From an uncultured SAR86 cluster bacterium (GTDB lineage Bacteria; Pseudomonadota; Gammaproteobacteria; Magnimaribacterales; AG-339-G14): DNA of 64,000 nt. This document shows, piece by piece, positions 15,516 through 25,005 of this stretch. Both the position numbers and the translations under genes were made by a program. Each line of letters begins with the position of its first letter. Positions within the stretch are counted from its first letter, which is position 1. The notes under the pieces were generated by a model. That model worked only from the letters and a program-made list of their open reading frames with translations, did not search any database and had not been told where the DNA came from. The stretch covers positions 369,884 through 433,883 of the forward strand of contig CACDKN010000001.1 of the NCBI GenBank assembly GCA_902553315.1, read 5' to 3'.

Positions 15516-15592
<77 letters not shown>

Positions 15593-15653
15593 ATTTTTCC
15601 TTAAAAAATAAGTATTTCAAGACATTTTCGTCAATCACTAATCTCAAGAAAAA

Positions 15654-15690
15654 TATACACAGTTATGCACAGTAGAATTTACTGTGTATA
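15654..15690. repeat. putative integrase arm-site triplet (left end of cassette 1)
   Basis: TATACACAGT (15654) + TATGCACAGT (15664) + 7 bp + inverted ACTGTGTATA (15681). Confidence 0.8.
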
Positions 15691-15699
15691 AAATAAGGT

Positions 15700-17325
15700 A
15701 TGACTGATAAAGAAAACGAAAATAATAAAAATAAGAAAGTAGAAAATAAGGATTCATCTAGAGAAAAAGATAAAGAAATAAATCTAGATGATTTCAAAGA
15801 AAAACTTTGGAAATCAGCAAACAAACTTCGTGACCAAATGGATGCCGCTGAATACAAACATATTGTCCTAGGTCTTATCTTTCTTAAATACATCTCAGAC
15901 TCATTTAAAGAACAAAAAGAAAAAATTAAAGAAATGGTTACTGACCCTGACTCCGATTTTTTTATCAGTGACAACTTATCTGATATCAACAAAGAAATTC
16001 TAGAAGATAGAGATAACTTCATTCAAGACAACGTCTTTTGGGTTCCAGAGTCTGCAAGATGGGAAACAGTCAGAGATCAAGCAAAGCAACCTGATATTGG
16101 TGCAATTATCGATCGTGCTATGGGAGATATAGAATCAGAAAATAAGTCACTTAAAGGAAAACTTGATAAACGCTTTGGAAGAACACAACTTGCTGAAGGA
16201 AGGTTAGGCGCACTGATAGACCTTATTTCTACTATTGGTTTTTCAAGTAATCAGAAAGCAGTTGATGTTTTGGGAGAAGTATATGAATTTTTTCTTGGTA
16301 AGTTTGCTTCAGCAGAAGGGAAAAGAGGTGGGCAATATTACACCACCCAAAGCATAGTAAAAACCTTAGTAGCAGTCCTATCACCTACAAATGGAAGAGT
16401 TTATGATCCTTGTTGTGGTTCAGGTGGAATGTTTGTTCAAAGTGAAAGATTTATTGAGGCACATGGTGGAAAAAGAGATGATATTTCAATTTATGGTCAA
16501 GAAAGCAATCCTACTACATGGAGACTGGCATCAATGAATATGGCACTTAGAGGATATTCTGCTGATTTGGGTAAAGAGAATGGAAGCACATTTGCAAAAG
16601 ATCAGCATCCCGATATTAAGTTTGATTACATATTGGCAAACCCTCCCTTCAATGATTCTGATTGGGAAGGTGAAAAATATAGAGAAGATGTTAGGTGGAC
16701 ATATGGAACTCCACCAATTGGAAATGCTAACTACGCTTGGTTCCAGCACATTCTCTGGAAATTAAAATCTAATGGACAGGCAGGAGTAGTAATGGCAAAT
16801 GGCACTTCATCTGCTAATGATTCCGGAGAGGGAGATATTAGGAAAGCAATGATACTTGACGATACTATTGAGGTGATGGTGGCACTTCCATCTAATCTTT
16901 TTGCAAATGTAACCGTGCCTGCAACATTATGGTTTTTATCAAAAGACAAGACTACGAATGGTCGAGATAGAAAAAAAGAAACTCTTTTCATAGATGCAAG
17001 AAAACTTGGAACCATGGAAACAAGAGTTCTTAAAGTTCTATCTGATGAAGATATTAAAAAAATTCAGGACACAGTTTCTTCTTGGAGAACTGGAGACGGA
17101 TATGAGGATGTTGAAGGTTATTGTAAAAGTTCAACCATTGAAGAGATTGAGAAAAATGGTTTTATTTTAACTCCTGGAAGATATGTTGGTATTGCAGATG
17201 AAGAAGATGATGGAGTTCCTTTTGAAGAAAAATTTACAAAATTTAGTAATAAATACAAACAACTCAAAATTGAATCACAGAAAATTGATGATGAAATAGA
17301 TAAAATTTTGAAAACAATTTTATGA
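15700..17325 (+). CDS. hsdM: Type I R-M methyltransferase subunit
   Basis: LWKSANKLR, GQYYT, YDPCCGSGGMF and ANPPFN (amino-methyltransferase motif IV). Confidence 0.96.
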   Translation: MTDKENENNKNKKVENKDSSREKDKEINLDDFKEKLWKSANKLRDQMDAAEYKHIVLGLIFLKYISDSFKEQKEKIKEMVTDPDSDFFISDNLSDINKEILEDRDNFIQDNVFWVPESARWETVRDQAKQPDIGAIIDRAMGDIESENKSLKGKLDKRFGRTQLAEGRLGALIDLISTIGFSSNQKAVDVLGEVYEFFLGKFASAEGKRGGQYYTTQSIVKTLVAVLSPTNGRVYDPCCGSGGMFVQSERFIEAHGGKRDDISIYGQESNPTTWRLASMNMALRGYSADLGKENGSTFAKDQHPDIKFDYILANPPFNDSDWEGEKYREDVRWTYGTPPIGNANYAWFQHILWKLKSNGQAGVVMANGTSSANDSGEGDIRKAMILDDTIEVMVALPSNLFANVTVPATLWFLSKDKTTNGRDRKKETLFIDARKLGTMETRVLKVLSDEDIKKIQDTVSSWRTGDGYEDVEGYCKSSTIEEIEKNGFILTPGRYVGIADEEDDGVPFEEKFTKFSNKYKQLKIESQKIDDEIDKILKTIL

Positions 17326-18668
17326 ATAGAAAAAACTGGAAACATCTATCTATAAATGAATGTGCTGATGTTATTGGTGGAGGCACTCCTTCAACTAAGA
17401 ACTCAGATTACTGGGATGGAAATATTTCATGGATATCACCAAAAGATTTATCAAATCACCAAGACAAATATATAACAAAGGGTGAAAGGTCTATTACCGA
17501 ACTTGGTTTGGAAAAAAGTTCTGCAAAGTTATTGCCTGCAAATTCATTGCTTTTTTCTTCAAGAGCACCAATTGGTTACTTAGCAATTAATACTAAACCA
17601 GTGGCAACTAACCAAGGTTTTAAAAGTTTGATTCTAAAAGAAGAGTTTGATGTAGAGTTTTTTTATTATCTTTTTAAAGACAAGACAGAATACATAAAGA
17701 ACCTTGCTTCTGGATCAACGTTTCAAGAAGTTTCAGGATCGGTTGTGAAAAATCTTTCATTTTTAATACCTCCAAAGCAAGAGCAAAAAAGAATATCAAA
17801 TATTCTTTCTAAACTAGATAAAAAAATAGAACTCAATCTAAAAATGAATGAATCTCTTGAAGAGATTGCAAAGACACTATTCAAATCTTGGTTTATAGAC
17901 TTTGATCCAGTAAGAGCAAAAGCAGAAGGAAGACCCACAGGATTGTCAAAAGAAATAAGTGATTTATTTCCTGATTCTTTTGAAGATTCTGAGTTGGATG
18001 AGATTCCAAGAGGATGGACGGTAACACATCTTGATGACATTGCTGATTTTCAAAACGGTTATGCATTTTCAAGTAAGGAATATGAGTTTCCAACACAGGA
18101 CTCCAAAGAAGTTTTTAGAATGGGTTATATCAAGATAGGTGGTGGTTTTAAAGAGGATAATACCCCCGTTTTTGTTCCAATATCATCTAAAGGAAATCAA
18201 CAAAAATACGTGCTCTACAAAGATGATTTGACAATTTCAATGACTGATGTGAAAAACAATATGCAGATTCTTGGTTGCTGTGCCCTTATAGAAGAAGATG
18301 AGAGATTTCTACTTAATCAAAGAGTCGGAAGGATAAGGGTCAAAGAATGCGTTCATATTTGTCCATATTATTTATATATTTATATGAATGACCCCAAGAA
18401 TATTGATTTACTTCGTTCTAGGTCAAACTCAGGTGTTCAAGTAAATCTTTCAACCTCAACAATAAAAGAAACAAACATCATTCTTCCAACAAAAAAGTTA
18501 TCCCAATACTTTTCTGACATAGTTAGACCCATTTATTCAAAAATATTTCATAACAATGTGGAATCAAAGAACCTTGAAGAAATTAGAGATATTTTTTTAC
18601 CAAAATTAATTTCTGGTGAACTTCAGATTCCAGATGCAGAGAATCTGATTGAGGAGGCAGGCATCTAA
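17322..18668 (+). CDS. hsdS: Type I R-M specificity subunit
   Basis: Two TRDs separated by the conserved block PPKQEQKRI...LFKSWFIDFDPV...EIPRGW; C-terminal RDIFLPKLISGEL. Confidence 0.95.
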   Translation: MNRKNWKHLSINECADVIGGGTPSTKNSDYWDGNISWISPKDLSNHQDKYITKGERSITELGLEKSSAKLLPANSLLFSSRAPIGYLAINTKPVATNQGFKSLILKEEFDVEFFYYLFKDKTEYIKNLASGSTFQEVSGSVVKNLSFLIPPKQEQKRISNILSKLDKKIELNLKMNESLEEIAKTLFKSWFIDFDPVRAKAEGRPTGLSKEISDLFPDSFEDSELDEIPRGWTVTHLDDIADFQNGYAFSSKEYEFPTQDSKEVFRMGYIKIGGGFKEDNTPVFVPISSKGNQQKYVLYKDDLTISMTDVKNNMQILGCCALIEEDERFLLNQRVGRIRVKECVHICPYYLYIYMNDPKNIDLLRSRSNSGVQVNLSTSTIKETNIILPTKKLSQYFSDIVRPIYSKIFHNNVESKNLEEIRDIFLPKLISGELQIPDAENLIEEAGI

Positions 18669-21600
18669 TGTCTCTAATTACTGAAGAACAGGTAGAACTG
18701 CAAAGTATTGAATGGTTTAAGGAACTTGGTTACCGGTATAGAGATGCTTATGAAATTGCACCTGAGGGCATAAACCCAGAAAGAGATGATTTTAGACAAG
18801 TTATTCTTGAAGAAAGACTCAAGACTGCACTTATTAAAATAAATCCTGATATACCCAATACAACTATTCAAAATTCAATACTAAAAATAATAAATCCCAA
18901 TATTCCTGGACTACTTAACTGTAATCGTGAAATGCATAAGTGGATTACGAAAGGATTAAAAGTAACTTTTATGCAAGACAATCAAGAGGTCGGAAGACAA
19001 CTCAAGTTAATCGATTTTGAAAACATCAATAACAATGACTGGTTAGTTGTAAATCAATTTCAAATACAAGGCGATCGGAGATTGAGAAGACCCGATGTCT
19101 TGGTTTTTGTGAATGGTTTACCTTTAGGAGTTATCGAATTAAAGAATCCTGCAGATGAGAATGCTGATGTTTGGTCTGCCTATAACCAATTACAAACCTA
19201 CAAAGAAAATATACCTGATTTATTTAATACCAATGGAGTATTAGTAATTTCTGATGGCATTCAAGCGAGAATGGGTTCTCTAACAGCACCACAAGAAAGA
19301 TTCATGAGGTGGAGAACTATTGATGGTGAGACCACTGATCCTTTGGGTGCATATCAAGATTTAGAAACTTTAATAAGAGGACTCTTTGATAAAGAAACTT
19401 TCCTAAACTTTATAAGATACTTTTGTATTTTTGAGGACGATAAAACCATTATTAAAAAGGTTGCTGGATATCATCAGTTTTATGCGGTGCAAAAAGCACT
19501 TGAGAAAGTGGTTGAAGCATCACAAGTTGACGGCAGTAAGAAAGGTGGTGTTGTTTGGCATACTCAAGGAGCAGGTAAAAGTTTAGAAATGACCTGTCTC
19601 GCGGGACGAATCATCTCGGAACCCAGATTGGGAAATCCAACCATTGTGATGGTGACAGATAGACAAGACTTAGATGGACAACTGTTTGGAGTATTTAATG
19701 ATGCGGGAGAATTACTCGGAGAGGCACCAAAACAAGCAGAGACCATCAGAGAACTCAAAGACCTTCTTGCAGATCGACCATCTGGTGGAATTATTTTTAC
19801 CACTATTCAAAAATTTAAACCGGAGAAGGGAGAAGATAAGTTTCCAGTTTTAACTGATCGACACAACGTTATTGTCATGTGCGATGAAGCACACAGAACT
19901 CAATATGGATTTAAGGGAGTAGTCGATCAGAAAACAGGACAGATTAAATATGGTCTTGCACGCGCCTTGAGAGACGGGTTGCCCAATGCAACCTTCCTTG
20001 CTTTTACAGGAACACCAATATCTCAAGACGATCGAGATACTCAAGCAGTCTTTGGAGAATACGTTGATATTTATGATATCCAACAAGCAGTAGAAGATGG
20101 AGCAACGGTTCCCATTTATTACGAATCCAGATTGGCAAAAGTAGAGATTGATGAATCCAAATTACCAACACTTGACGATGAAGTTGAAGAAATTTTCGAA
20201 GATGGCATTGAAAATGAAGAAGAACAGGAAAAAGCAAAGTCGAAATGGTCACAAATCGAAGCATTGGTTGGCGCGCAATCCAGATTAAAAGAAATTGCAG
20301 AAGATTTAATTAGACATTTTGAAACTCGACAAAAAACTCAACCCGGCAAAGCGATGATTGTTGGTATGAGTAGAGACATCTGTGCAAGACTTTACGATGA
20401 AATTATCCGGGTAAGACCTCAATGGGATAGTCCAGATCATAATTCAGGAGTCGTCAAAGTTGTCATGACTGCATCTGCTCAAGATGAACAACATTTGCAA
20501 AAGCACCATACATCAAAACAACAAAAGAAAGATCTTGAAAAAAGATTTAAAAACCCATCCGATGAACTGCAAATCGTAATTGTCAGAGATATGTGGTTAA
20601 CCGGTTTCGATGCTCCCTGCTTGAGTACAATGTATATCGATAAACCCATGCAAGGAGCAAACCTGGCGCAAGCAATTGCAAGAGTCAACAGAGTCTTCGC
20701 AGATAAACCAGGTGGATTGGTTGTTGATTACATTGGTATCGCACCGCAACTAAAAGAAGCATTAGCAACTTATGGTGCTGGTGGAGGAAGGGGTAAACCC
20801 ACCATAGATACGGATGAAGCACTAAAAATTCTCCAAGAAAAAATTGCAGTGGCAAGAGATCTACTCCACCCCGTAGATTTTTCAGAATATAAAAGTAAAG
20901 CACTGCAACTCCTTCCAGAGTGCATAGATCACATTTTAGAATTGGAAGATGGCAGAAAAAGATACTGCGATATTGTTTTACAAATGACCAAAGCATTTGC
21001 TCTATGCGGTGCTATGGACGATGCGTTGGTTTTTGCCGATGAAGTAGCATTTCATCAAGCGGTCAGAGGACCTTTGATAAAGACCGCAAGAAAAGGAGGA
21101 ATGGGAGAATTTAAAGATACAGATTTCGAATTAAAACAATTGGTTTCAGAATCATTAGTTTCTGGAGGTGTGTCAGACATTTTTAGTATTGCAGGAATAA
21201 AAACTCCAGATATCTCAATTCTTTCAGAAGAATTTTTAAAAGAAGTGCAAAAAATGAAATTTAAAAATATTGCAGTTGAATTGTTAGAAAAACTTATCAA
21301 CGATGAAGTGAAGTCAAAGTTTAGAACCAATGTAGTGAAACAAAAAAAATTTAGTGATTTATTAAAAAACGCACTAACAAAATATCAAAATAGATCTATC
21401 GAAGCAGCACAAGTAATAGCGGAGTTGATTGAAATGGCAAGGGAGTTCAAGAACGATTTAGAGAAGTCAAAAGAACTTAATCTTAATCCTGCTGAAACCG
21501 CATTTTATGACGCTTTATCAAATAATGAATCTGCAGAGGAATTAATGGGAGAAGAAGTTCTTATTCAAATTTCCAAAGAAATCGCAGAAAAATTAAGAAA

Positions 21601-21766
21601 AAATGTGACTGTCGACTGGTCCGTAAGAGAATCAGTAAGAGCAAAGTTAAGACTCTTAGTTAAAAATCTCTTAAGAAAATACAAGTATCCTCCTGACCAA
21701 CAAGAAAGTGCAACTCAGTTGGTGTTAAAACAAGCAGAAGTGATTTCAGGTGAATTTGCTCAATGA
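18668..21766 (+). CDS. hsdR: Type I R-M restriction subunit
   Basis: RPDVLVFVNGLPLGVIELK nuclease motif; HTQGAGKS, DEAHR, FTGTP, MWLTGFD and QAIARVNR helicase motifs. Confidence 0.96.
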   Translation: MSLITEEQVELQSIEWFKELGYRYRDAYEIAPEGINPERDDFRQVILEERLKTALIKINPDIPNTTIQNSILKIINPNIPGLLNCNREMHKWITKGLKVTFMQDNQEVGRQLKLIDFENINNNDWLVVNQFQIQGDRRLRRPDVLVFVNGLPLGVIELKNPADENADVWSAYNQLQTYKENIPDLFNTNGVLVISDGIQARMGSLTAPQERFMRWRTIDGETTDPLGAYQDLETLIRGLFDKETFLNFIRYFCIFEDDKTIIKKVAGYHQFYAVQKALEKVVEASQVDGSKKGGVVWHTQGAGKSLEMTCLAGRIISEPRLGNPTIVMVTDRQDLDGQLFGVFNDAGELLGEAPKQAETIRELKDLLADRPSGGIIFTTIQKFKPEKGEDKFPVLTDRHNVIVMCDEAHRTQYGFKGVVDQKTGQIKYGLARALRDGLPNATFLAFTGTPISQDDRDTQAVFGEYVDIYDIQQAVEDGATVPIYYESRLAKVEIDESKLPTLDDEVEEIFEDGIENEEEQEKAKSKWSQIEALVGAQSRLKEIAEDLIRHFETRQKTQPGKAMIVGMSRDICARLYDEIIRVRPQWDSPDHNSGVVKVVMTASAQDEQHLQKHHTSKQQKKDLEKRFKNPSDELQIVIVRDMWLTGFDAPCLSTMYIDKPMQGANLAQAIARVNRVFADKPGGLVVDYIGIAPQLKEALATYGAGGGRGKPTIDTDEALKILQEKIAVARDLLHPVDFSEYKSKALQLLPECIDHILELEDGRKRYCDIVLQMTKAFALCGAMDDALVFADEVAFHQAVRGPLIKTARKGGMGEFKDTDFELKQLVSESLVSGGVSDIFSIAGIKTPDISILSEEFLKEVQKMKFKNIAVELLEKLINDEVKSKFRTNVVKQKKFSDLLKNALTKYQNRSIEAAQVIAELIEMAREFKNDLEKSKELNLNPAETAFYDALSNNESAEELMGEEVLIQISKEIAEKLRKNVTVDWSVRESVRAKLRLLVKNLLRKYKYPPDQQESATQLVLKQAEVISGEFAQ

Positions 21767-21960
21767 GAGAATTAGTTATTTTTAATAATGTACCTTCTAC
21801 AGAGAATCCAGAAGAATATTCAGAAGGATTATTCGTTTGGATAGAAAATGATCAAATGATGACTACTCTTGAGTACCATTGCGCAAAAGGAGGAGATCCC
21901 GAGGTTTATAAAAAATGGGAAGAATCAAATAAGGCATTTATTACTAAAAAAGAACTTTAA
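21763..21960 (+). CDS. hypothetical protein (65 aa), coupled to hsdR
   Basis: ATGA overlap with the hsdR stop; ends 7 bp before the arm-site block. Confidence 0.55.
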   Translation: MRELVIFNNVPSTENPEEYSEGLFVWIENDQMMTTLEYHCAKGGDPEVYKKWEESNKAFITKKEL

Positions 21961-21967
21961 AACCCTT

Positions 21968-22034
21968 ACTGTGCATATTTTCTCTAATTTTGTCTTAAAG
22001 TTTTATGAAAAATATACACAGTAATATACACAGT
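21968..22034. repeat. putative integrase arm-site triplet (right end of cassette 1)
   Basis: Inverted ACTGTGCATA (21968); direct TATACACAGT at 22013 and 22025. Confidence 0.8.
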
Positions 22035-22082
22035 AAATCCTGAAACCTTTATTTAAAGGACTTTTTTTTCAGCACCTCACGA

Positions 22083-22128
22083 CTGATAAGGGTGAGGTCG
22101 CAGATTCGAGTTCTGCCAGACCCACCAA
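22083..22128 (+). repeat. displaced tRNA-Ile 3' half (attR of cassette 1)
   Basis: 46/46 identical to 15548-15593; starts exactly at the anticodon loop CTGATAA. Confidence 0.95.
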
Positions 22129-22163
22129 AAACCCTTTTAAATCAACACTTAGAGGGTTTTTTT
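22127..22163 (+). terminator. terminator-like hairpin after the tRNA fragment
   Basis: AAAAACCCT...AGGGTTTTT inverted repeat ending in a T run; loop contains an IHF-like AATCAACACTTAG. Confidence 0.45.
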
Positions 22164-22185
22164 AGTTTTAGAGATATTAAAAATA

Positions 22186-22222
22186 TATACACAGTTATGC
22201 ACAGTTGTATTCACTGTGTATA
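22186..22222. repeat. putative integrase arm-site triplet (left end of cassette 2)
   Basis: TATACACAGT (22186) + TATGCACAGT (22196) + 7 bp + ACTGTGTATA (22213). Confidence 0.8.
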
Positions 22223-22305
22223 AAACTGCTCCATATTAATTTCTTTTGTTGAGAAATATTAGTAATCTATGTAATCATAAAATTTTCTTATAAGTAAAAA
22301 GGATC

Positions 22306-22584
22306 ATGGAAATAAATAAAATACTAAATTTAGAACCTAAAGAAGAACAGATTGAAAAATTATTTGAATACAAACTTGAATGTCAAAAAGAGATTAACCG
22401 TTGGACAGAAATAATAGAAATTCACAAAAAATGGAATAAAAAATCTGAAGAAGATTTTATTAATTATCATTTAAATAATCTTGATTATGACTATAAAGAA
22501 ATATCTAAAGCACAAGAAAATCTTATAACAAAAGAAATAGAATTAAATAATTTAAATAAAATTTTGTCTGAATACCTTCAATGA
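22306..22584 (+). CDS. hypothetical helical/coiled-coil protein (92 aa)
   Basis: AAGGA upstream; E/K/L-rich heptad-like pattern; very AT-rich. Confidence 0.6.
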   Translation: MEINKILNLEPKEEQIEKLFEYKLECQKEINRWTEIIEIHKKWNKKSEEDFINYHLNNLDYDYKEISKAQENLITKEIELNNLNKILSEYLQ

Positions 22585-22617
22585 AAAAATTAATACTTTT
22601 TTTGGCATACTAATTGG

Positions 22618-23304
22618 ATGGAAGCAAAGTTACTTAAATATAACCAGTTGGTGATGAATGAAAATGGCATCCATCTCCAAAAAGGTATGAATTTTGGAAT
22701 ACAAGGTTCTTACTCAATAGTTTTAATGTCAGTAGAAAAGAATGCTCCATATGCTGATGAAATGCTTGAGGATGGAACTATCAGATATGAAGGTCATGAT
22801 GCTCGTGTTTCACCAGAAGATAAAAAAATTACTGACCAACCAATGGCAAACAAAACCGGCACATTGACTGAAAATGGAAAGTTTTTTCAAGCAGCAGAGA
22901 ATTTTAAAGTTGGCAAAAGAGAACCAGCAAAGATAAAAGTTTATAGAAAGTTAAGACCTGGTGTATGGGTCGATATGGGTTTTTATGATTTAACAGATGC
23001 TCTTATCGAGCATGATGGCAAAAGAAAAGTTTTTAAATTTATACTTAAACCAAACTTTGAAGATTTTGACCCAGAAACCTCTGAGAATATTGACCTTGCA
23101 CATAATAGGTATATTCCAGGTGATGTAATGCAAGAAGTTTATATACGAGACGGAGGCAAGTGTATTGAATGTGGTTCAGAAGATAACCTTCACTATGACC
23201 ATAAAATACCTTTTTCAAAAGGAGGTTCTTCAAAAGATGCAAGAAACATTCAGTTATTGTGCGCAAGGCATAATTTAAGCAAAGGGAATAAATTTAAATA
23301 CTAG
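22618..23304 (+). CDS. HNH endonuclease with SRA/YDG-like N-terminal domain (candidate modification-dependent REase)
   Basis: C-terminal CIECG...HYDHKIPFSKGG...NIQLLCARHN HNH motif; N-terminal SYSIVLMS...YADE...DGTIRYEG resembles SRA. Confidence 0.75.
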   Translation: MEAKLLKYNQLVMNENGIHLQKGMNFGIQGSYSIVLMSVEKNAPYADEMLEDGTIRYEGHDARVSPEDKKITDQPMANKTGTLTENGKFFQAAENFKVGKREPAKIKVYRKLRPGVWVDMGFYDLTDALIEHDGKRKVFKFILKPNFEDFDPETSENIDLAHNRYIPGDVMQEVYIRDGGKCIECGSEDNLHYDHKIPFSKGGSSKDARNIQLLCARHNLSKGNKFKY

Positions 23305-23308
23305 TAAC

Positions 23309-23357
23309 CCCCTCATAAGGGTGAGGTCGCAGATTCGAGTTCTGCCAGACCCACCAA
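23309..23357 (+). repeat. third copy of the tRNA-Ile 3' half (outer attR)
   Basis: 48/49 identical to 15545-15593; single G>C change in the anticodon loop (CTCATAA). Confidence 0.93.
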
Positions 23358-23433: not shown

Positions 23434-25005
23434 TTGTGTAAATTTCTTTGTTCATTAGCTTTCTTTTTTTCGTTGACCTTACTATCTCATCCAGAATCAT
23501 CTATTGAGAAATATCCTGCTGAAATAGCGCACTCTCCATCACCTTTGCCTGATAGAGTTGTTTTAACCTGGAACGATGATCCTGCAACTACGCAAGCTGT
23601 TAGTTGGCGAACAGATGTATCGGTTAAAGCCGGGCTCGCTCAGCTTGCTATAGCAAATGCAAATGGAAGAGCTCTTAAGCCAGATGAATTCAAAGCAGAA
23701 ACAAGTTATTTTAAAAGTGATATCAATGAGGCTCATTACCATAGTCTAACTTTTAAGAATCTTCAGCCAGATACTCTATATGCTTACAGAGTTGGAGATG
23801 GAGTAAATTGGACGGAGTACTATCATTTCAAAACTGCAAGTTCTGAAGAAGAGCCCTTCAGTTTCATTTATTTTGGTGATGCACAAAACGAAGTGAGAAC
23901 TCATTGGTCAAGAGTTTTTAGAGAGGCTTTTCGTGATGCGCCGAGAGCTGCATTTGCATTATATGCTGGTGATATGGTGAATCGAAAGTTTAGCGACTCC
24001 GAGTGGGGAGAATGGCATCAAGGTCCAGATTGGGTTAATGGTACTCTCCCGGTGATTGCGACACCAGGTAACCACGAATACTTTAATTATGATCAACGAT
24101 TCAATACAGAGTTTTATTGGACTGACAAGGAAGGAGACGATGTCGAAGTTACGCTGACTTCTATGGTTGAGGAAGAAAATGATCAGGGCAAGGTTTATAA
24201 AATGTCATTTTTGGCATCTGATAGTGAAAAAATAACGATAGAATTTAATGATTCTGGTGTAATAACTCAAACAGACGATCAAATAGAAGTTGTTACTGGA
24301 TTTTCTAAAAAACAATTACTAGGTCGAAATTTATATGGTTCACCACTTTACAATCGACAACGTATTCCAGAGCAAGCTTCTCTAAGCAATCACTGGAGGA
24401 TGCAGTTTGAGTTTCCCGTTCAGAATGTACCTGACCCTGCACTTGCTGAAACTGTCTATTATATTGACTATCAAGGTGTAAGATTTATATCTCTTGACTC
24501 GAATAATGCAAAGGAGTCCCAGGTAGAGTGGTTAAAAAAGGTGCTGGAAAGCAATAAGAATTTTTGGACAATTGTTACGTTCCATCATCCAATGTTTTCA
24601 CCAGGATCGGATAGGGATAATCCTGAAATAAGAAAGCTTTGGAAACCAATTTTAGATGAATTCAAGGTTGATTTGATACTAAGTGGACATGACCACACAT
24701 ATGCACGAACTGGTCAGATCGGATCAAAAAAAATTATGAACATTCCGGAGGGTTACGAGAAAGCTTACGATCCAAATATTGGTACTGTAAATGTAGTGTC
24801 AGTAAGTGGCCCTAAAATGTATAAAATCACAAAGGGTGCTTTTGCAAAACGAATGGCAGAAGATACTCAACTCTACCAAATTGTTGATATAAAAAAAGAT
24901 AGTCTTAGGTTCCGCGCATATACTGCAACGGGAAAGCTGTATGATGAATTTCTTCTTAAAAAACGAAAAGATCAGCCAAACTTATTAATAGAAACGGGTC
25001 CTTAA
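23434..25005 (+). CDS. secreted metallophosphoesterase (purple acid phosphatase-like, FN3 + calcineurin-like domains)
   Basis: Signal peptide; LQPDTLYAYRVG; GDAQ, GDMVN, GNHE, FHHP and GHDHTY metal motifs. TTG start is uncertain. Confidence 0.85.
   Translation: MCKFLCSLAFFFSLTLLSHPESSIEKYPAEIAHSPSPLPDRVVLTWNDDPATTQAVSWRTDVSVKAGLAQLAIANANGRALKPDEFKAETSYFKSDINEAHYHSLTFKNLQPDTLYAYRVGDGVNWTEYYHFKTASSEEEPFSFIYFGDAQNEVRTHWSRVFREAFRDAPRAAFALYAGDMVNRKFSDSEWGEWHQGPDWVNGTLPVIATPGNHEYFNYDQRFNTEFYWTDKEGDDVEVTLTSMVEEENDQGKVYKMSFLASDSEKITIEFNDSGVITQTDDQIEVVTGFSKKQLLGRNLYGSPLYNRQRIPEQASLSNHWRMQFEFPVQNVPDPALAETVYYIDYQGVRFISLDSNNAKESQVEWLKKVLESNKNFWTIVTFHHPMFSPGSDRDNPEIRKLWKPILDEFKVDLILSGHDHTYARTGQIGSKKIMNIPEGYEKAYDPNIGTVNVVSVSGPKMYKITKGAFAKRMAEDTQLYQIVDIKKDSLRFRAYTATGKLYDEFLLKKRKDQPNLLIETGP

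Follow-up and report, generated by a model that had tools for sequence, protein, structure and literature searches.

Probable arm-type sites of a divergent tyrosine integrase at two integrase-less tRNA-Ile islands of a SAR86 genome

Background

A 64,000-nucleotide stretch of DNA from an uncultured SAR86 cluster bacterium (GenBank assembly GCA_902553315.1, contig CACDKN010000001.1, forward-strand positions 369,884 to 433,883; hereafter the window) carries copies of a 10-nucleotide sequence, TATRCACAGT, clustered around repeated 3' ends of a tRNA-Ile(GAT) gene. The question raised by this locus is which protein these repeats serve, as the two islands that lie between the tRNA copies contain no recombinase gene. 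An original prediction, made from the window alone, had taken the repeats for maintained P and P' arms of one integrase. The comparisons described below point to a restricted form of this answer: the 10-mers are probably arm-type sites for the N-terminal domain (N-domain) of a heterobivalent tyrosine integrase of the lambda/P4 style that targets tRNA-Ile(GAT).

Tandem insertions and repeats at the tRNA-Ile gene

The tRNA gene, its 3' copies and the islands between them occupy the following positions.

15516..15592, plus strand: complete tRNA-Ile(GAT) gene (ARAGORN).
15548-15592, plus strand: core copy 1, on the attL side; the last 45 nt of the tRNA, from the anticodon loop to the CCA (repeat search).
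22083..22127, plus strand: core copy 2, matching 15548-15592 at all 45 nt; it serves island 1 as attR core and island 2 as attL core.
23309..23357, plus strand: core copy 3, closing the array distally; 49 nt, of which a single one, 23314 (the first anticodon base), is mismatched, and no repeat block after it.
15593-22127: island 1, a type I restriction-modification (R-M) island.
22128-23357: island 2, a small HNH island.

The three tRNA-Ile 3' copies bound two tandem insertions, which together span 15593-23357. The first two copies had already been recognized in the original prediction and both are real, while the third, at 23309-23357, had been overlooked. Two congeneric genomes, G005 (a single contig, 97% complete) and G006, have empty counterparts of the locus. 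In both, the window flank from 23361 onward starts 3-4 bp past the tRNA-Ile CCA, demonstrating that 15593-23357 is a 7.8-kb insertion bounded at the tRNA 3' end. The core is common to both junctions and to the empty target site, and the empty sites of G005 and G006 carry no 10-mer block.

Exact matches to TATRCACAGT occur nine times in the window, all where the original prediction had placed them: on the plus strand at 15654, 15664, 22013, 22025, 22186 and 22196, and on the minus strand at 15681, 21968 and 22213. One hundred dinucleotide-preserving shuffles of the window gave a mean of 0.10 copies, and none of the 100 reached nine. When up to two mismatches were allowed, 73 matches were observed against 73.2 expected, so that the enrichment is confined to exact copies. 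A search of the whole assembly (1,130,532 bases, 13 contigs, 88% complete) returned the same nine copies and none elsewhere, while the reversed control pattern was found once. The nine copies form three groups.

15654..15690, plus strand: block A, putative P' arm of island 1; direct copies at 15654-15663 and 15664-15673, a 7-bp spacer (AGAATTT) and an inverted copy at 15681-15690.
21968..22034, both orientations: block B, putative P arm of island 1; an inverted copy at 21968-21977 and direct copies at 22013-22022 and 22025-22034.
22186..22222, plus strand: block A', putative P' arm of island 2; direct copies at 22186 and 22196, a 7-bp spacer (TGTATTC) and an inverted copy at 22213.

Blocks A and A' lie 61 bp and 58 bp after a CCA, as had been claimed, with the tRNA-Ile gene ending at 15592 and the second CCA at 22127. 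The DNA between CCA and block has indeed diverged; the two spacers agree in 30 of 61 aligned columns and are unrelated. Within each block the second direct and the inverted 10-mer form a palindrome around the 7 bp. The direct copies of block B are separated by a 2-bp gap and lie 70 and 58 bp ahead of core copy 2, the last of them ending 48 bp ahead of it. The 255 bp from 21968 to 22222 consequently hold three 10-mers on either side of core copy 2, which is the layout of an attP. The arm repeats, which do not resemble the core, stand on both core sides for island 1 and on the P' side only for island 2, where none was found ahead of core copy 3.

Position of the block in other genomes and in marine metagenomes

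The original prediction would have failed had the motif been spread through the genome upstream of ordinary genes. All copies in the assembly fall within the two att regions, and in 60 relatives the 10-mer matches the control in frequency, the one exception being a block in G011, a genome from a different genus of the family. A genome-wide transcription-factor box was rejected on these grounds. A direct pair was present in 2 of 50 family genomes. Extending the direct-pair scan to one genome per prokaryotic species yielded 91 stretches (11 of them with short flanks), among which only L069 has the geometry of an abutting pair, 7 bp and an inverted copy; nine further loci with at least three copies differ in geometry. 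The same scan of viral contigs yielded seven stretches, none with a third copy. A phage origin was rejected, as viral contigs gave no three-copy site and one 39-residue match to the profile of the integrase described below.

A scan of marine metagenomes for the whole block returned 19 loci, bringing the number of block instances to 24 (two in the window, one in G011, two in L069 and the 19 metagenome loci). For 21 of these the sequence includes the CCA, and in all 21 the block begins 58-62 bp downstream of it, the CCA belonging to a tRNA-Ile(GAT) gene or to a 3' fragment of one. The instances cover three variants of the tRNA T-arm and so come from several lineages. Their spacers fall into five sequence classes with at most 72% mutual identity and lengths of 61, 58, 60, 61 and 62 bp. 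The distance from the block to the next gene, by comparison, ranges between 4 bp and over 100 bp, and the genes that come next in L116, which encode an NgoFVII-type endonuclease and a C5 methylase, run on the opposite strand. A fixed distance to the CCA, combined with a varying distance and strand of the next gene, indicates that the block is positioned relative to the core and not to a gene.

Recognizable cargo behind the blocks consists mostly of restriction-modification genes or nucleases and differs in nearly every cassette. The arrays are closed by a block-less terminal tRNA fragment in the window, in G011 and in L125. Another R-M island, in L132, has a direct pair at its far end that is spaced by 2 bp like the P-arm pair of the window. 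The same cassette stands directly after the full tRNA in one genome and behind others elsewhere (L069 versus L119, L126 and L121; L128 versus L125). L121 also holds an island (L121:151-1805) that directly follows the complete tRNA-Ile without a block, the block appearing only after the next tRNA fragment, so that the tRNA site is shared with a second kind of element.

Parts of the stretch were found in 20 read runs from 12 studies. Contigs from four marine runs contain none that joins core 1 to core 2 or 3, so that neither excision nor a circle junction was seen in them. One X2 contig joins 22587 to 23323, with a short side of 30 nt, and represents a variant without the HNH gene. Read depth is raised in the bins that hold the blocks; these bins are confounded by the tRNA part, and depth was not used as evidence.

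The integrase of block-bearing relatives

In 5 of the 19 metagenome loci, each beside a complete tRNA, an open reading frame (ORF) of 386 amino acids starts 4 bp past the block. Pfam does not detect PF00589 in this ORF, which matches the PHROG 1 integrase (E 2.6e-18) over residues 4-371. Among its 154 database homologues several have a precomputed PF00589 match, and the SLRH box and the C-terminal tyrosine are both invariant in the family alignment. No sequence match to any chain of the PDB was obtained at E up to 1. The closest structure to an AlphaFold2 model of the ORF (mean predicted local distance difference test score, pLDDT, 85.3) is full-length lambda Int (1z1b_A; E 8.6e-8 over 391 columns), followed by Tn1549 Int, XerA and Cre.

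The first 62 residues of the integrase are modelled as four strands and a helix. When this N-domain was modelled alone (pLDDT 80.1), the top three Foldseek matches were 3rmp, 3jtz and 3ju0, which are the arm-type binding domains of the P4-like, HPI and HAI7 integrases; all three matches are weak (E 0.03-0.07). Alignment by VIA-align gave Z 5.1 for 3jtz (root-mean-square deviation 2.6 over 60 residues) and Z 4.1 for residues 8-65 of lambda Int. Pfam reports DUF6538 for 7 of 12 members, with a best E of 0.0029. The predicted models are thus suggestive of an arm-binding domain.

The integrase profile gave no match at E 1e-30 in a sample of 401 genomes drawn from across the class, and a query of 266 genomes of the order found 23 with a match. 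In the genome of the window itself PF00589 identifies two proteins only, and both exceed an equivalog cut-off, one that of XerD and the other that of XerC.

Covariation of the repeats with the integrase and its N-domain

The repeat stays TATACACAGT among integrases of 77-100% identity. A more distant case is provided by G009, one of the 23 matching genomes, in which a full-length homologue with 44% identity adjoins a tRNA-Phe gene in the same orientation.

L154:10990-15270: complete G009 element of about 4.2 kb, with the 382-amino-acid integrase, a DNA methyltransferase (PHROG 67, E 7.8e-52) and a 250-amino-acid ORF of unassigned function.

The repeat of this element is TAACACA, and all nine copies in the 19.9-kb locus fall in two arms. 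The left arm starts 63 bp past the tRNA-Phe CCA and ends 8 bp ahead of the int ATG, and in the right arm an inverted copy is followed by direct copies, at 91, 69 and 57 bp ahead of a 46-nt tRNA-Phe fragment. With direct copies at 69 and 57 bp here and at 70 and 58 bp in the window, the geometry is kept while motif and tRNA differ. In this one diverged case the repeats have changed together with the integrase.

The other 22 matching genomes comprise G086, whose partial integrase homologue is cut by the contig start, and 21 that match only the N-terminal 60 or so residues. In three genomes of genus g17 (G117, G122 and G116) the N-domain, 63-71% identical, opens a 1240-amino-acid ORF resembling an indolepyruvate:ferredoxin oxidoreductase.

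L155:5054-8776, plus strand: the 1240-amino-acid N-domain ORF in G117; further cases are L137 in G122 and L138 in G116.

Upstream of this ORF stand direct copies of TATACACAGT or TATGCACAGC, with an inverted ACTGTGTAT just ahead of the ATG, and in the three genomes paired 10-mer copies occur solely upstream of the N-domain ORF. No tRNA was found on the 8.9-kb contig of G117, the sole whole contig examined; the G122 and G116 loci, of about 3 kb, were not scanned for tRNAs. The 10-mer accordingly travels with the N-domain even outside an att site, and these genes are the best indirect evidence for what would be the reader of the 10-mer. The pN/pS ratio (nonsynonymous to synonymous differences) of the N-domain fusion is 0.26 for three pairs, and the ORF looks as if the 5' end of an integrase had been captured along with the sites that belong to it.

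The N-domain recurs in genus g7, where petA, encoding the Rieske Fe-S subunit, has an N-terminal extension of about 70 residues ahead of the twin-arginine motif in 18 of 30 genomes.

L156:3966-4766, minus strand: extended petA in G265; 17 further g7 genomes have it (L139-L153).

The gene order in g7 is rplM-rpsI-petA-petB-petC, and the extension is 40-50% identical to the arm-binding-like domain of the integrase. Its median pN/pS is 0.26 at a pS of 0.69 (78 pairs from 13 of the 18 sequences, which as kin are not independent), and it is under purifying selection. A conserved inverted repeat, TTTGAACA..TGTTCAAA, lies just ahead of the ATG of the extended petA.

Proposed mechanism and alternative explanations

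Taken as arm-type sites, the repeats suggest the following course of events. The integrase would target the part of tRNA-Ile(GAT) from the anticodon loop to the CCA and exchange strands inside the 45-nt core. Its P' arm would be the block 58-62 bp downstream of the core, made of two abutting direct sites, 7 bp and one inverted site, and its P arm the inverted site and direct pair that end 48 bp upstream of the core. Two elements would have entered successively at an intact tRNA, the R-M island last, pushing the HNH island outward and leaving 21968-22222 as a mirror of attP. Since the integrase is absent from the islands and from the assembly, the sites are orphan and the islands resemble cis-mobilizable elements (CIMEs); such sites would become active only on the arrival of a related integrase-bearing element. 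Island 1, with two arms, should be excisable in trans; island 2 has the P' arm only. In the integrase-bearing relatives, where the block lies 4 bp ahead of the int start codon, it would probably serve also as an operator for autoregulation of int, and the 10-mer sites probably have both roles, recombination arm and int operator. We infer three things: the N-domain recognizes the 10-mers, recombination depends on the sites, and mobilization proceeds in trans.

The prediction of P and P' arms maintained for one integrase therefore stands in part. The arm sites are borne out by the fixed distance in 21 of 21 assessable blocks, by the int gene 4 bp past the block in 5 of 19 loci and by the geometry in G009. 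The word "maintained" fares less well in a genome without a cognate integrase, where it can mean only recently used or used in trans.

Several observations weigh against arm-type sites of an integrase. Neither the cognate integrase nor its N-domain profile has a match in the genome of the window (88% complete assembly). The integrase-bearing metagenome loci comprise 2 kb per contig, with their distal ends out of view. The fold matches of the N-domain are weak (E above 0.01, Z about 5), and unrelated small folds do equally well in VIA-align. No P-arm repeats stand ahead of the distal fragment in island 2 or in most relatives (G011, both L069 cassettes, L118, L119, L125 and L128), and a two-arm requirement is not general in this family. 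The one-armed cassettes may have no need of a P arm, may be unable to move, or may travel as parts of composites. The block itself was the search target behind all 24 instances, and their internal conservation is partly a matter of ascertainment; the link to the tRNA is not. The arm function of the 10-mers is derived from comparison, with both binding and recombination predicted. Finally, the inverted pair around 7 bp resembles a dimeric operator, and control of a promoter alone could explain the conservation of the block in integrase-bearing elements.

This last point leads to the alternative that the 10-mers are operators only, controlling a downstream promoter of int or of cargo, with no role in recombination and with their proximity to the tRNA simply inherited. 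The block ends 4 bp ahead of the int ATG in all five integrase-bearing loci, the 10-mer precedes N-domain fusion genes without a tRNA on the 8.9-kb contig, and an autoregulated int promoter that overlaps attL is documented for KplE1 IntS (PMC2951348). The original prediction had likewise raised regulation of cargo, citing a TAGAAT at 15673-15678 and the end of block A 9 bp ahead of the hsdM ATG (15700), both of which are correct. Block A contains a 9-of-12 promoter-like match; such matches do not rise above the level of the shuffles (3 found against 1.5 +/- 1.4). A pure operator also leaves unexplained why the spacer is kept at 58-62 bp over five unrelated sequences while the distance and strand of the next gene vary, and why repeats stand also across the core, at a point beyond all the cargo that offers nothing to regulate (21968-22034; G009 shows the same). 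We consider this explanation unlikely. Still less likely is another binder of the repeats, whether a directionality factor, a replication protein of the excised circle using them as iterons, or a host factor. Iterons are likewise short repeats of about 10 bp, and a small gene of no known family, orf65, ends 8 bp ahead of the P-arm repeats. Against such a binder, the integrase is the sole gene common to block-bearing loci, cargo differing from cassette to cassette, and the motif changes in G009, where the integrase has changed too, and accompanies the N-domain alone in g17. A box for an R-M controller protein was rejected as well, with no helix-turn-helix gene in the island and with the block preceding unrelated cargo.

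The full FRT site has the same geometry of two direct elements, a spacer and one inverted element, and the block might on this analogy be the crossover site itself, with exchange within the 7-bp spacer. Contigs in two runs join 22181/22182 to 15649/15651, as recombination between A' and A would give. These joints are ambiguous; their short sides measure 45-52 nt, and they fit a related cassette, for example L122, mapped in two halves at 90% likeness. Neighbouring blocks have different 7-bp spacers (AGAATTT and TGTATTC), a mismatch that would prevent exchange; G005 and G006 have no block at their empty sites, and none follows the tRNA fragments that end the arrays (23357, G011, L125). Because the arrays end without a block, the crossover is placed in the tRNA core and an FRT-like exchange in the block is ruled out. 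On these three grounds an FRT-like site was rejected and is, of all the explanations, the hardest to credit. A broader interpretation, possible and yet doubtful, builds on arm-type sites: the islands would form an integron-like cassette system anchored at the tRNA, and the arm-binding domain with its 10-mer would have been co-opted as a regulatory module on housekeeping enzymes. Integrons hold arrays of small integrase-less cassettes, each with a recombination module, that enter at the proximal position. Here the need in cis would be a module of about 145 bp (the 45-nt core, the 58-62-bp spacer and the block of two direct copies, 7 bp and an inverted copy), and a rare integrase carried by a minority of cells would insert, excise and reshuffle cassettes in trans, proximally to the tRNA. 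The cassettes would be R-M systems and HNH and PD-(D/E)XK nucleases, and the islands would not be decayed remnants. Co-option would apply to two enzymes under purifying selection, the Rieske Fe-S protein (one genus, 18 of its 30 genomes) and the indolepyruvate-oxidoreductase-like enzyme (three genomes). Unlike integrons, the site consists of a tRNA 3' part and arm repeats and not of an attC hairpin, the integrase is lambda-like with an arm-binding domain, and there is no resident integrase or Pc promoter.

Relation to known systems

The predicted three-domain fold of the integrase, close to 1Z1B, places it with lambda Int and the P4-like integrases, and its N-domain best matches the P4-type arm-binding domains (3JTZ, 3JU0 and 3RMP). 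Also shared with these systems are an attP-like unit of some 255 bp, in which the core is flanked by three sites to either side, and a crossover placed in a tRNA gene. Unlike in lambda and P4, the P' arm is an abutting direct pair with an inverted site, an IHF site is unsupported and many members lack P-arm sites. In KplE1 (CPS-53), according to Panis et al. (2010, PMC2951348), the tRNA is followed by int, attL overlaps the int promoter and int is negatively autoregulated. The five integrase-bearing loci resemble the "STI" modules described there, for which negative autoregulation is predicted, in having a tRNA and then int in the same orientation, with P' arm-type sites at the int start. They depart from that account in the divergence of their integrase, which is too great for Pfam PF00589, and in that no recombination directionality factor was identified; the window, moreover, has no integrase and carries cargo directly behind the block.

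CIMEs, as outlined by Guedon et al. (2017, PMC5704250), have lost their integration genes and kept attL and attR, and tandem accretion occurs at tRNA 3' ends. The islands of the window similarly lack integrase and transfer genes, retain attL and attR and stand in tandem from successive integrations. They are unlike CIMEs in that conjugation genes occur nowhere, the units are defence cassettes of 1.2-6.5 kb in a genome of about 1.2 Mb, and several have an arm on the attL side only. Tycheposon islands of Prochlorococcus, in the main text of Hackl et al. (bioRxiv 10.1101/2020.12.28.424599), arise by repeated proximal integration at a tRNA, which leaves partial tRNAs and integrase-less material. 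A streamlined marine genome and growth beside a tRNA are shared with the present locus. The host lineage differs (homologues are labelled "Gammaproteobacteria bacterium"), and the term "arm-type" is absent from that main text.

Arm-type sites, tRNA targets, int promoters overlapping attL and integrase-less tandem islands are known, and as integrase biology the finding is conventional. The novelty lies in the family itself, a divergent clade of integrases that this survey met only in marine metagenomes and in a handful of small genomes, in the motif of that clade and its rule of spacing, and in the fact that defence cassettes without an integrase predominate. Titles in the literature on SAR86 islands, tRNA integrases and arm-type binding or autoregulation gave no description of this integrase family. 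The results supply a concrete att architecture, with core, spacer length, arm motif and candidate reader domain, for an uncharacterized clade that moves restriction-modification and nuclease genes into a tRNA-Ile hotspot of very small marine bacterial genomes. Most cassettes of the hotspot travel without an integrase of their own, which bears on the exchange of defence genes among streamlined ocean bacteria.

Cargo, spacers and neighbouring genes

The cargo of island 1 consists of hsdMSR and orf65 only, with the core and arm repeats at both ends, and island 2 holds two genes.

15700-17325, plus strand: hsdM (Pfam N6_Mtase, HsdM_N).
17322-18668, plus strand: hsdS (Pfam Methylase_S).
18668-21766, plus strand: hsdR (Pfam HSDR_N, SWI2_SNF2, T1RH-like_C).
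21763..21960, plus strand: orf65, 65 codons, no Pfam or PHROG match; ends 8 bp ahead of the first P-arm repeat.
22306-22584, plus strand: orf92, 92 codons, no match.
22618-23304, plus strand: HNH endonuclease, 228 amino acids (Pfam HNH; PHROG HNH endonuclease).

Clusters at 90% identity contain 7 members for HsdM and 3 for HsdR, compared with 316 and 422 for core genes beside the site, as one would expect of flexible genes that are rare. The position of orf65 would be plausible for a directionality factor, for which it is a candidate only.

The two spacers in the window differ in their predicted folding.

15593..15653, plus strand: spacer 1, 61 bp, no hairpin; fold -2.3 kcal/mol, z -0.1.
22127..22161, plus strand: hairpin with an 11-bp stem and a 13-nt loop, followed by seven T; -10.6 kcal/mol, z -2.5.

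With no hairpin in spacer 1, there is nothing terminator-like between the tRNA and hsdM, and read-through from the tRNA into hsdM is conceivable. The hairpin at 22127-22161 looks like a terminator; promoter and terminator scans gave nothing above shuffles. A site for integration host factor (IHF) had been proposed at about 22140, and the genome has three genes of the HU/IHF family. The 13-mer in question, AATCAACACTTAG (22141-22153), is a near match to the IHF consensus and forms the loop of the 11-bp hairpin. The stem recurs in four of the five spacer classes while the loops differ, so that the conserved feature is the hairpin and not the 13-mer, and the proposed IHF site is not upheld. In G003, of the same genus, a 57-bp hairpin-type spacer like 22128-22185 of the window directly follows tRNA-Ile with neither block nor island (L158:1048-1105); it could be a scar or an ancestral state.

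Genes for tRNA-Ile(GAT) and tRNA-Ala(TGC) usually sit in the spacers of rRNA operons. In the window each stands alone, the two lying 15.7 kb apart (15516 and 31273) with no rRNA between them. Beyond the array, the gene for a purple acid phosphatase (23434-25005) is variable, being present in G005, G006 and G007 and missing at the locus in G003 and G004, where a fatty-acid hydroxylase gene comes next after the tRNA in its place.

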